Positions 11,402-11,940 of a DNA stretch of 17,896 nucleotides are shown one piece after another (the stretch's first letter is position 1; every line of letters starts with the position of its first letter). Made by a program: the position numbers and the translations under genes. Origin of the DNA: Candidatus Uhrbacteria bacterium (GTDB taxonomy: Bacteria > Patescibacteriota > Patescibacteriia > JACPHY01); assembly GCA_016188355.1 (NCBI GenBank), contig JACPHY010000010.1:1-17896 (forward strand), in the 5' to 3' direction. The notes under the pieces were generated by a model. The model saw only the letters and a list, made by a program, of their open reading frames with translations. It was not told the origin of the DNA and did not search any database.

Positions 11402-11568
11402 GTCCATTCCTCCATGCGCGGCAGCGCCGTGATGTCGGTCGACCCTATATCGACTGCATCGTGGCGCATGCGATGGCCGCGGTGCGCACCCTCATGCATG
11501 GGGATGCGGAGCGCGGCCATCGGTTCGGGGGTGCGATTCGGTTGCAGGTGAAGCCGTGGGCAACGAAT

Positions 11569-11599
11569 ATCGCGCCTCCGGAACGCGAGGAGGCGCGAT
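11569..11599. repeat. Perfect 11-bp-stem inverted repeat (hairpin A) in the divergent intergenic region.
   Basis: atcgcgcctcc / ggaacgcga / ggaggcgcgat. Confidence 0.55.
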
Positions 11600-11619
11600 G
11601 AACCAACCGGAGCTGCAAT

Positions 11620-11665
11620 GCGTCGCCGATCAGGAAACGAAAAATCGTCGCCTGATCGGCGACGC
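11620..11665. repeat. Perfect 15-bp-stem inverted repeat (hairpin B), 20 nt after hairpin A.
   Basis: gcgtcgccgatcagg / aaacgaaaaatcgtcg / cctgatcggcgacgc. Confidence 0.6.
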
Positions 11666-11856
11666 ATCCAGGGTTCCGTGGCATCATCACCCTCGCGAGA
11701 GGGGTTGGTTTCGCACCGTGCTCCACCAAATGGAGTGGTTGCGGGCAGGACTTCGGGCCAAAACCCTTTGCATTCCTGCGCTCTGGATACGTCGACTTCA
11801 GTTGTAGACGAACCGTATCATGGCGATGCAGTGGTGTCAAATTGTTGCGCAGCGGC

Positions 11857-11885
11857 TTGACGCCCCGGTGTTTTTGTGATATTTT
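11857..11885 (+). promoter_or_regulatory. Sigma70-like promoter for the SLOG-like gene: TTGACG, a 17-nt spacer, then TATTTT.
   Basis: cTTGACGccccggtgtttttgtgaTATTTTttcgg. The predicted transcription start is about 55 nt upstream of the ATG at 11941. Confidence 0.45.
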
Positions 11886-11940
11886 TTCGGATGTCATTAT
11901 TCGTGGGTGATGGGTTCCCAAAATGAAAGGAGTTGATGCG

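Follow-up and report, generated by a model that had tools for sequence, protein, structure and literature searches.

A probable SAM-I riboswitch with two candidate terminators in the leader of a vault protein-like operon of Candidatus Uhrbacteria

Introduction

The closest described counterparts of the locus reported here are the S-box leaders of Firmicutes (RF00162), such as those of Bacillus subtilis yitJ, metI and metK. In these S-adenosylmethionine (SAM) riboswitches of class SAM-I, the aptamer is a four-way junction with a conserved core and a pseudoknot between the P2 loop and J3/4, the P1 helix is the anti-antiterminator, and the antiterminator forms when the P1 3′ strand pairs with the 5′ arm of an intrinsic terminator. 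We analysed a 17,896-nt stretch of DNA (hereafter, the window) from a Candidatus Uhrbacteria bacterium (assembly GCA_016188355.1, contig JACPHY010000010.1, positions 1 to 17,896), in which two perfect hairpins, A and B, lie between a gene for a protein resembling major vault protein (MVP) and a divergent gene for a 298-aa product. The minus-strand leader that contains them shares all of these S-box features, with hairpin A in the place of the terminator; it is likewise predicted to be OFF at high SAM and is followed by a metK-like gene and a methylthioadenosine/S-adenosylhomocysteine (MTA/SAH) nucleosidase gene. Unlike S-box leaders, its aptamer scores below the family threshold and has a P1 of 5 bp and a 7-nt insertion in P2 at the site of the kink-turn (K-turn), its antiterminator is very long with a 17-bp perfect apex, and that apex appears to contain an extra, nested terminator under the control of the P1 5′ strand. 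The first gene downstream is MVP-like (vault/SPFH), and the host belongs to the candidate phyla radiation (CPR).

Two other arrangements invite comparison. Tandem riboswitches consist of two whole riboswitches, one after the other. In some Gammaproteobacteria, the complex rimP-leader carries two terminators in tandem (PMC2965389). As in both, the window leader has two successive candidate premature terminators before one gene, each with its own competing structure; unlike in either, there is one aptamer, and both terminators appear to read its state through the two strands of P1. The riboswitch class and the terminator/antiterminator logic are already well known. Four features appear to be new: an upstream terminator nested in the antiterminator and controlled through the P1 5′ strand, the great length of that antiterminator with its perfect apex, the occurrence in a CPR host, and the identity of the regulated gene. 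A non-exhaustive search of the open-access literature returned no description of one aptamer serving two terminators and no link between a SAM riboswitch and vault, MVP, SPFH, band 7 or MoxR proteins, and a preprint on bacterial MVP is silent on riboswitches and gene context.

Two perfect hairpins in a divergent intergenic region

A preliminary description of the window had reported tandem perfect hairpins with stems of 11 and 15 bp, 20 nt apart. Recomputed coordinates place the arms of hairpin A at 11569–11579 and 11589–11599 (11 bp, perfect, 9-nt loop), in agreement with that description, and those of hairpin B at 11618–11634 and 11651–11667. The 15-bp core of B (11620–11634/11651–11665) does lie 20 nt from A, but its perfect stem is longer than reported, at 17 bp, and encloses a 16-nt loop. 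When the window was shuffled 100 times with its dinucleotide content preserved, perfect hairpins of at least 11 bp (loops of 3–20 nt) occurred at a mean of 0.16 per window and those of at least 15 bp in none, so the two stems are beyond chance, as had been supposed. An extended but imperfect inverted repeat (11597–11640/11645–11688), whose 44-nt arms are 73% complementary, has hairpin B at its apex.

Both hairpins had been described as having no U-tract, which is correct for the plus strand only. Read on the minus strand, B contains an inner 7-bp hairpin (11664→11646) that runs directly into ATTTTTCGTTT, and A is followed by a degenerate tail, ATATTCGTTG, where its orthologues have clear U-tracts. 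Three identities had been offered for the pair: REP-like elements, binding sites for a regulator, or part of a structured RNA. Our comparisons favour the third and point away from the other two. Hairpins A and B are very probably the expression platform of a divergent SAM-I riboswitch in a minus-strand transcript that forms the 5′ leader of the MVP-like operon, an assignment drawn from sequence comparison and predicted folds. It makes a regulatory device that can be tested out of two palindromes that had lacked an explanation.

Repetitive extragenic palindromic (REP) or other dispersed repeats, inserted between the two genes, would explain why the hairpins are tandem, GC-rich, perfect and intergenic, as bacterial interspersed palindromes are, and would sit well with a boundary of mosaic similarity near 11600 between the window and a related contig (described below). 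Yet no extra copies beyond chance occur in the 17.9-kb window, GGATGCGTCGCC is found once per related locus and always at the orthologous leader position and strand, and 10 loci preserve the synteny of these elements with the aptamer. Single-copy, covarying, strand-specific and tied into the alternative pairings of the riboswitch, they are unlike REP elements, and an origin as inserted repeats is exceedingly improbable.

A SAM-I aptamer below the Rfam threshold

At gathering thresholds, Rfam models matched nothing in the whole window, which also contains no tRNA or tmRNA genes. A permissive Rfam scan of the intergenic region, a check that the preliminary description had proposed, gave a full-length RF00162 match on the minus strand (11793→11681; 24.6 bits, E = 0.0048). 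We attribute the low score to a P1 of only 5 bp and to the 7-nt insertion at the normal K-turn site. A covariance model built from seven aptamers of other MVP loci, with the window and its closest relatives left out (model R1), found positions 11678–11793 of the minus strand at 61.1 bits, with an E value of about 6.5e-16 (a rough figure) against 0.26 for the next match in the window. It follows that the element in the window is homologous to bona fide SAM-I aptamers. Neither the permissive scan nor R1 detected a second aptamer in the intergenic region; with a single aptamer match and a gap of about 50 nt between the two candidate terminators described below, the leader is thus not a tandem riboswitch, which would hold two aptamers.

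The aptamer (11681–11793, minus strand) comprises P1, P2 with an insertion in its internal loop, P3, P4 and a pseudoknot, and the minimum free energy (MFE) structure of the isolated element is a four-way junction of P1 (GUAUC/GAUGC), P2a/P2b, P3 and P4. Compensatory changes in P2 and P3 are seen across 13 sequences. P4 varies while its pairing is kept (CCCUC/GAGGG, UCCC/GGGA, CCCC/GGGG, CCCU/AGGG and CUGC/GCAG, as read from the sequences). The ligand pocket and junction core are intact, including UAUC-AGAG, AGGG..GCCC, GCAACC, GGUGC-AA and the tandem A-U/U-A pairs atop P1; these SAM-I core nucleotides are invariant columns in an alignment of nine leaders and match the RF00162 consensus. The pseudoknot between the P2 loop and J3/4 occurs in four compensatory variants, here designated by the loci (L numbers) that carry them: UUGG:CCAA in the window, L028, L004 and L009; CUGG:CCAG in L029; AUGG:CCAU in L011 and L021; and UGAG:CUCG in L032. 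As MAFFT misaligns J3/4, these pairs were read from the alignments in place of a formal count.

The insertion in P2 is a shared trait. On the 5′ side of the internal loop, 6–7 extra nucleotides of the form (G)AUGCnA are present in the window (11756–11762, minus strand), L027, L028, L029, L011 and L021, and L009 has a shorter, divergent insertion (UGUG) at the same place. On the 3′ side, all of these insertion-bearing aptamers read GAAGU or GAUGU where the consensus is GAUGA.

SAM riboswitches precede MVP homologues in other genomes

We collected loci encoding MVP homologues from genomes, metagenomes and exact look-up. A scan of genome contigs with a single protein returned no relatives; a query built from an alignment succeeded and was used. 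A SAM-I or SAM-II riboswitch precedes the MVP homologue in 15 of the approximately 25 loci examined, SAM-I in 14 of them and SAM-II in one. SAM-I matches at or above the Rfam gathering score of 44.4 bits were found upstream of the MVP homologue in L017 (68.2 bits), L016 (67.8), L004 (60.9), L032 (57.1) and L021 (47.9), and matches under it in L011 (44.3), L007 (43.1), L015 (36.3), L027 (32.7), L009 (32.1), L028 (28.5) and L029 (23.8). In L010, from a proteobacterial metagenome-assembled genome, a SAM-II riboswitch (RF00521, SAM_alpha; 61.8 bits, 2352–2431) lies directly upstream of the MVP homologue and abuts its start codon. SAM-II has an H-type pseudoknot fold, carries no terminator hairpins of the window type and is absent from the window; its position immediately before an MVP-like gene therefore represents the same regulatory link made by an unrelated aptamer class. 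Ten other MVP loci yielded no SAM riboswitch.

The linked loci include some in which the MVP gene stands alone (L016 and L017) or has other neighbours (L010), and the sequence evidence for a link between SAM riboswitches and MVP homologues is strong. To our knowledge, it is the first functional handle on bacterial MVP homologues. The survey also shows that an entire SAM-I sub-clade of CPR bacteria (Uhrbacteria and relatives) escapes the standard Rfam threshold because of its short P1 and insertions in P2, P3 and P4. In L031 (100–476), a SAM-I aptamer carries large insertions in all three of these helices, about 250 nt in all; it was missed by every Rfam scan, and it is followed by the same downstream platform as in the window. 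Two loci depart from direct adjacency: in L009 the aptamer (186–292) precedes a 201-aa open reading frame (ORF) and a PNP_UDP_1 gene, with MVP after them, and in L005 the aptamer match (1–65) is truncated, sits at the margin of the retrieved DNA and lies 2.4 kb upstream of MVP, with two ORFs between.

The window (11600–13900) resembles the Uhrbacteria contig L027 in a mosaic fashion. At the nucleotide level the two are about 90–98% identical over the divergent 298-aa gene (92.8% for the protein) and 95% over the aptamer, and identity falls to about 60–70% from around position 11600, between B and A, through the MVP gene (59% for the protein). The pattern points to recombination or to strongly differing constraint, in either case with a boundary within the leader.

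Two candidate terminators and their competitors

The leader transcript probably starts near 11805, at ACAACUGAAG, downstream of a sigma-70-type promoter on the minus strand (11812–11840) with a −35 element TTGACA (11840→11835), a 17-nt spacer and a −10 element TACGGT (11817→11812) preceded by TG. A consensus promoter scan did not call it, the −10 element being too weak, and we therefore infer it from conservation: TTGACA, the 17-nt spacer, TAnnnT and the ACAACUGAAG start are kept in L027, L028, L032, L009, L004, L011 and L016. A plus-strand promoter (11857–11885) stands back to back with it.

Ten leaders (those of the window, L027, L028, L029, L031, L032, L009, L004, L011 and L021) share the layout that follows the aptamer, which consists of an upstream terminator-like hairpin (T1), hairpin B, a conserved motif and a downstream terminator-like hairpin (T2, or hairpin A). 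T1 (11635–11664, minus strand) has a stem of CGUCGCC (11664→11658) and GGCGACG (11652→11646), a GAUCA loop and the tail AUUUUUCGUUU (11645→11635). A terminator scan flagged it 17 nt downstream of the aptamer as CGTCGCC-GATCA-GGCGACG (11664→11646) followed by ATTTTTCGTT, and flagged its counterparts in L027, L029 and L004; a hairpin with a U-tract occupies this position in 10/10 window-like leaders. T1 shares its 5′ arm with hairpin B and, as T1 is the inner part of B, the loop of B is the U-tract of T1. More fully, B's loop is composed of that U-tract and the 7-nt partner strand of T1.

The predicted competitor of T1 is a first antiterminator, AT1. Here a segment termed seg0 (GUCGACGUAUCC, 11785–11796, minus strand), made of the P1 5′ strand GUAUC (11790→11786) and the bases upstream of it, has two alternative partners, the P1 3′ strand and the 5′ arm of B, seg1 (CUGGAUGCGUCGCCGAUCAGG in the window), which otherwise pairs with the next segment to give the short hairpin and U-tract of T1. 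Stepwise folding of the window transcript gave the aptamer when the RNA ended at P1, seg0:seg1 without T1 once seg1 had been made, and hairpin B once its 3′ arm had been made. The seg0:seg1 duplex has z-scores of −3.5 to −7.3 in nine loci, and the 10-bp AT1 helix is 97.6% paired across nine loci, compared with 19–46% in slid controls. With P1 enforced and the transcript ending at T1, T1 forms in 10/10 loci; in the unconstrained fold, seg0 pairs with seg1 in 10/10, and T1 is lost fully in four, partly in three and kept in three.

Hairpin B (11618–11667, minus strand; stem 11667→11651 with 11634→11618) would form only in transcripts that have passed T1. Its orthologous helix of 12 pairs is 90.8% paired, with compensatory changes at five pairs, clearly above slid controls, and its duplex z-scores range from −3.6 to −9.0. 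An earlier idea, that B merely resets the aptamer, gave way to a simpler one in which B forms the apical stem of a classical antiterminator. That structure, AT2 (11590–11694, minus strand), has the lowest predicted free energy when the transcript extends through the 5′ arm of hairpin A. In its lower stem, GAGG (11694→11691), GUGAUGA (11690→11684, including part of the P1 3′ strand), GCCA (11682→11679) and CGGA (11678→11675) on the 5′ side pair with UCCG (11611→11608), UGGU (11605→11602), UCAUCGC (11601→11595) and CCUC (11593→11590) on the 3′ side. AT2 matches the imperfect inverted repeat noted above.

With hairpin A transcribed only as far as its 5′ arm, the MFE structure in the window, L027, L029, L032 and L011 is one long hairpin, at whose base J4/1, the P1 3′ strand and an ACGGAA linker pair with the UCCGGUUGG motif and the 5′ arm of A. 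In L009, L004 and L032, this arm directly complements GGAA(n)GAUGC (J4/1 followed by the P1 3′ strand); a change from A/C to U/G is compensatory. As modelled, the long hairpin is the classical S-box antiterminator. Because MAFFT columns are not homologous across the whole SAM-I structure and the lower antiterminator stem, per-sequence duplex predictions replace formal pair counts for both. The 3′ side of the lower stem includes the conserved motif UCCGGUUGGUU between B and A (11601–11611, minus strand), which is kept in L027, L028, L031, L004 and L029 and pairs with ACGGAA downstream of P1, the two sides covarying in L029 (CGCAGUA:UGCUGUG). The motif is also complementary to J3/4 of the aptamer (AACCAACC).

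Hairpin A, as T2 (11561–11599, minus strand), has arms AUCGCGCCUCC (11599→11589) and GGAGGCGCGAU (11579→11569), loop UCGCGUUCC and tail AUUCGUUG (11568→11561). In the window, the terminator scan flagged only an inner variant of the hairpin and not the full 11-bp stem; its orthologues, with good U-tracts, are flagged as terminators. The orthologous helix of 10 pairs is 93.8% paired, with compensatory changes at six pairs, which 0/500 shuffles equalled. With P1 enforced, hairpins B and A both form. Our first candidate for an antiterminator of hairpin A, in which the aptamer segment GGUGCGAAACCAACC pairs with GGUUGGUU-CA-UCGCGCC, is strong in the window, L029, L004 and L028 and absent from L032, L009 and L011, and was demoted to an alternative or additional pairing. 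Across these leaders, then, the helices and U-tracts are conserved and covary, and the predicted folds switch in the manner set out in the next section.

The same comparisons bear on the idea that the palindromes act at the DNA level, as operators bound by a dimeric regulator of the two divergent genes (MVP-like and 298-aa). In its favour, the inverted repeats are perfect and lie in an intergenic region between divergent genes, which also holds a third palindrome with an apical ATGCAT. Both hairpins, however, lie downstream of the minus-strand promoter by 140–240 bp and are well clear of the one on the plus strand; orthologues keep their pairing by compensatory changes and not their sequence; U-tracts are kept on one strand only; and both arms join alternative pairings with the P1 strands. 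We regard operator function as very improbable.

One aptamer, one or two regulated terminators

The reading that we prefer, and consider probable, is that a single SAM-I aptamer gates two terminators, the P1 5′ strand competing with T1 and the 3′ strand with T2, with hairpin B handing over between them. A wider reading adds that this S-box variant, together with SAM-II elsewhere, places near-methionine-free MVP homologues in a regulon responding to SAM or methionine limitation; we put the probability of the whole, regulon included, at roughly one in three. In the two-terminator scheme, P1 (GUAUC/GAUGC) would be the sensor output of the aptamer. When SAM is bound, P1 would be locked and the 5′ arm of B left free, so that T1 forms and transcription stops; polymerases that pass T1 nonetheless would find the lower antiterminator stem blocked, and hairpin A would form and stop them. 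When SAM is missing, the P1 5′ strand (seg0) would capture the 5′ arm of B (seg1) and T1 would be bypassed. The 3′ arm of B would next displace the seg0 pairing to form hairpin B, whose stem would extend downward through the free P1 3′ strand and sequester the 5′ arm of hairpin A, and read-through would lead to transcription of the genes for the MVP-like protein, the MTA/SAH nucleosidase, a 344-aa protein, MoxR, the vWA protein and the MetK-like protein. SAM binding, termination at T1 and T2 and this order of events are model predictions. If confirmed, one aptamer with two terminators would be a compact fail-safe, useful for understanding or engineering tight OFF switches.

Several observations weigh against this scheme. 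The window aptamer is under the RF00162 gathering score (24.6 against 44.4 bits), and its P2 has no evident canonical K-turn. The seg0:seg1 pairing coexists with T1 in the MFE of 3/10 loci (L029, L032 and L009). Shuffle z-scores for the lower antiterminator stem are modest, at −2.6 in the window and −0.6 to −3.5 elsewhere, and GGUGCGAAACCAACC in the aptamer is about as good a partner for the 5′ arm of hairpin A in the window (−24.9 kcal/mol). The tail of hairpin A in the window is a poor U-tract (AUAUUCGUUG), so T2 may be weak there. Finally, the full-length equilibrium folds of most relatives consist of the aptamer, B and A even without a ligand constraint, and antitermination at T2 would therefore have to be kinetic.

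Some of these points would be accommodated by a SAM-I leader with one regulatory terminator. Hairpin A could be the sole switch, with the inner hairpin of B and its U-rich loop incidental or acting as a pause site; conversely, T1 could be the switch and A a constitutive partial terminator or a stabilising or processing hairpin. The AT-rich relatives L015–L017 manage with a single terminator, and in L007 a classical terminator comes after a B-like hairpin that has no U-tract; the weak U-tract of A in the window and the joint presence of T1 and AT1 in three MFE structures fit the same view. Against it, a hairpin with a U-tract is kept at both positions in 10 leaders whose downstream genes are at about 50–65% protein identity, and each terminator has its own conserved competitor that uses one P1 strand. 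We therefore consider control through a single terminator unlikely, and below the two-terminator scheme in probability.

The predicted terminated RNAs, of about 165 and 240 nt, could instead, or in addition to their part in cis control, be trans-acting small RNAs. They would have two defined 3′ ends with stable hairpins and a conserved 5′ end, ACAACUGAAG, and about 160 nt of further structured leader separates them from the start codon. In L028, L016 and L017, by contrast, the terminator is 45–60 nt from the start codon, leaving no room for another promoter, and the SAM-II riboswitch of L010 abuts the start codon. A promoter scan found no promoter-like minus-strand site between hairpin A and the gene, and no target was identified. 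A trans-acting role thus has little probability.

The operon and its methionine-poor first product

The MVP-like gene (9620–11401, minus strand) is the first of the operon and encodes a 593-aa protein with Pfam MVP_shoulder, Vault repeat and SPFH matches; the product starting at 11401 is the version on record. A ribosome-binding site, GGAGG (11413→11409), stands 7 nt before the ATG (11401→11399). The MTA/SAH nucleosidase gene is second (8802–9482, minus strand; PNP_UDP_1 match, TIGR01704 at 104.8 bits against a cut-off of 73.8). There follow genes for a Cys-rich 344-aa protein without assigned function, a MoxR AAA+ ATPase, a vWA protein and a divergent MetK-like protein (2918–4303, minus strand), which matches Pfam S-AdoMet_synt_C, _N and _M and, over its full length, TIGR01034 (206 bits, below the cut-off of 309). 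No strong minus-strand terminator was found between 11400 and 2918, and the MetK-like gene is the last before the next strong hairpin and promoters. Two genes of SAM metabolism, for the nucleosidase and the MetK-like protein, thus run in the direction of the leader behind the MVP-like gene.

The MVP-like protein of the window contains 0.3% Met and 0.2% Cys, compared with 1.5–4% Met in the other window proteins. Across 65 MVP homologues the mean is 0.41% Met, and in 8/24 loci the protein has no internal Met in about 560 aa. The depletion extends to MVP homologues for which no riboswitch was found. Near-Met-free composition would fit an abundant protein made under methionine or SAM scarcity. Were the proposed regulation correct, an MVP-like assembly with MoxR, vWA, MetK-like and MTA/SAH nucleosidase partners would be a response to SAM or methionine depletion, the trigger for which could be nutritional or caused by a competitor or phage.

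The SAM-metabolism genes of the window are embedded in a MoxR/vWA-type module. In the minus-strand stretch 1138–11401, beyond the MetK-like gene, lie a 13-bp perfect hairpin (2842–2872), strong promoters at 2702→2674 and 2548→2520 and then a gene for a RelA/SpoT-like nucleotidyltransferase; a terminator-like 16-bp hairpin (2588–2627, minus strand) sits between the two promoters, upstream of that gene. Perfect 10-bp hairpins also occur near the junction of the vWA and MetK-like genes (4149–4175) and between the nucleosidase gene and the next gene (8736–8773).

Other features of the intergenic region

Between T2 and the ribosome-binding site of the MVP-like gene is hairpin C (11471–11522, minus strand), an imperfect palindrome with 26-nt arms and an apical AUGCAU, for which Rfam gave no match. 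Apical (G)AUGCAU(A) hairpins stand at the same place in the leaders of L004, L007, L029 and L032. They are similarly long, GC-rich stems with the loop (A)GAUGCAUA(A) containing AUGCAU, at about 2419–2447 in L004, 2397–2448 in L007, 525–565 in L029 and 1866–1920 in L032. In sequence, the loop of hairpin C is similar to both the P2 insertion (AAUGCAA) and the 3′ strand of P1 (GAUGCA).

Four ORFs overlap the riboswitch region (11445–12173 and 10981–11667 on the minus strand; 11556–11807 and 11618–11860 on the plus strand), and ORFs here had been judged non-protein-like. We concur, and reject all four as coding: tblastn matches to relatives, spread over several frames and both strands, fall only over the nucleotide-conserved aptamer or antisense to real genes, and L027 has its called ORF at a different position.

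The divergent plus-strand gene (11923–12837), labelled SLOG-like in the preliminary description, has no Pfam or NCBIfam match, and that label is not confirmed. Its start is probably the ATG at 11941, which has AAGGAG 8 nt upstream, and not 11923; the resulting 298-aa product is the one called in two other assemblies. In both the window and L027, a radical SAM gene comes next after it.

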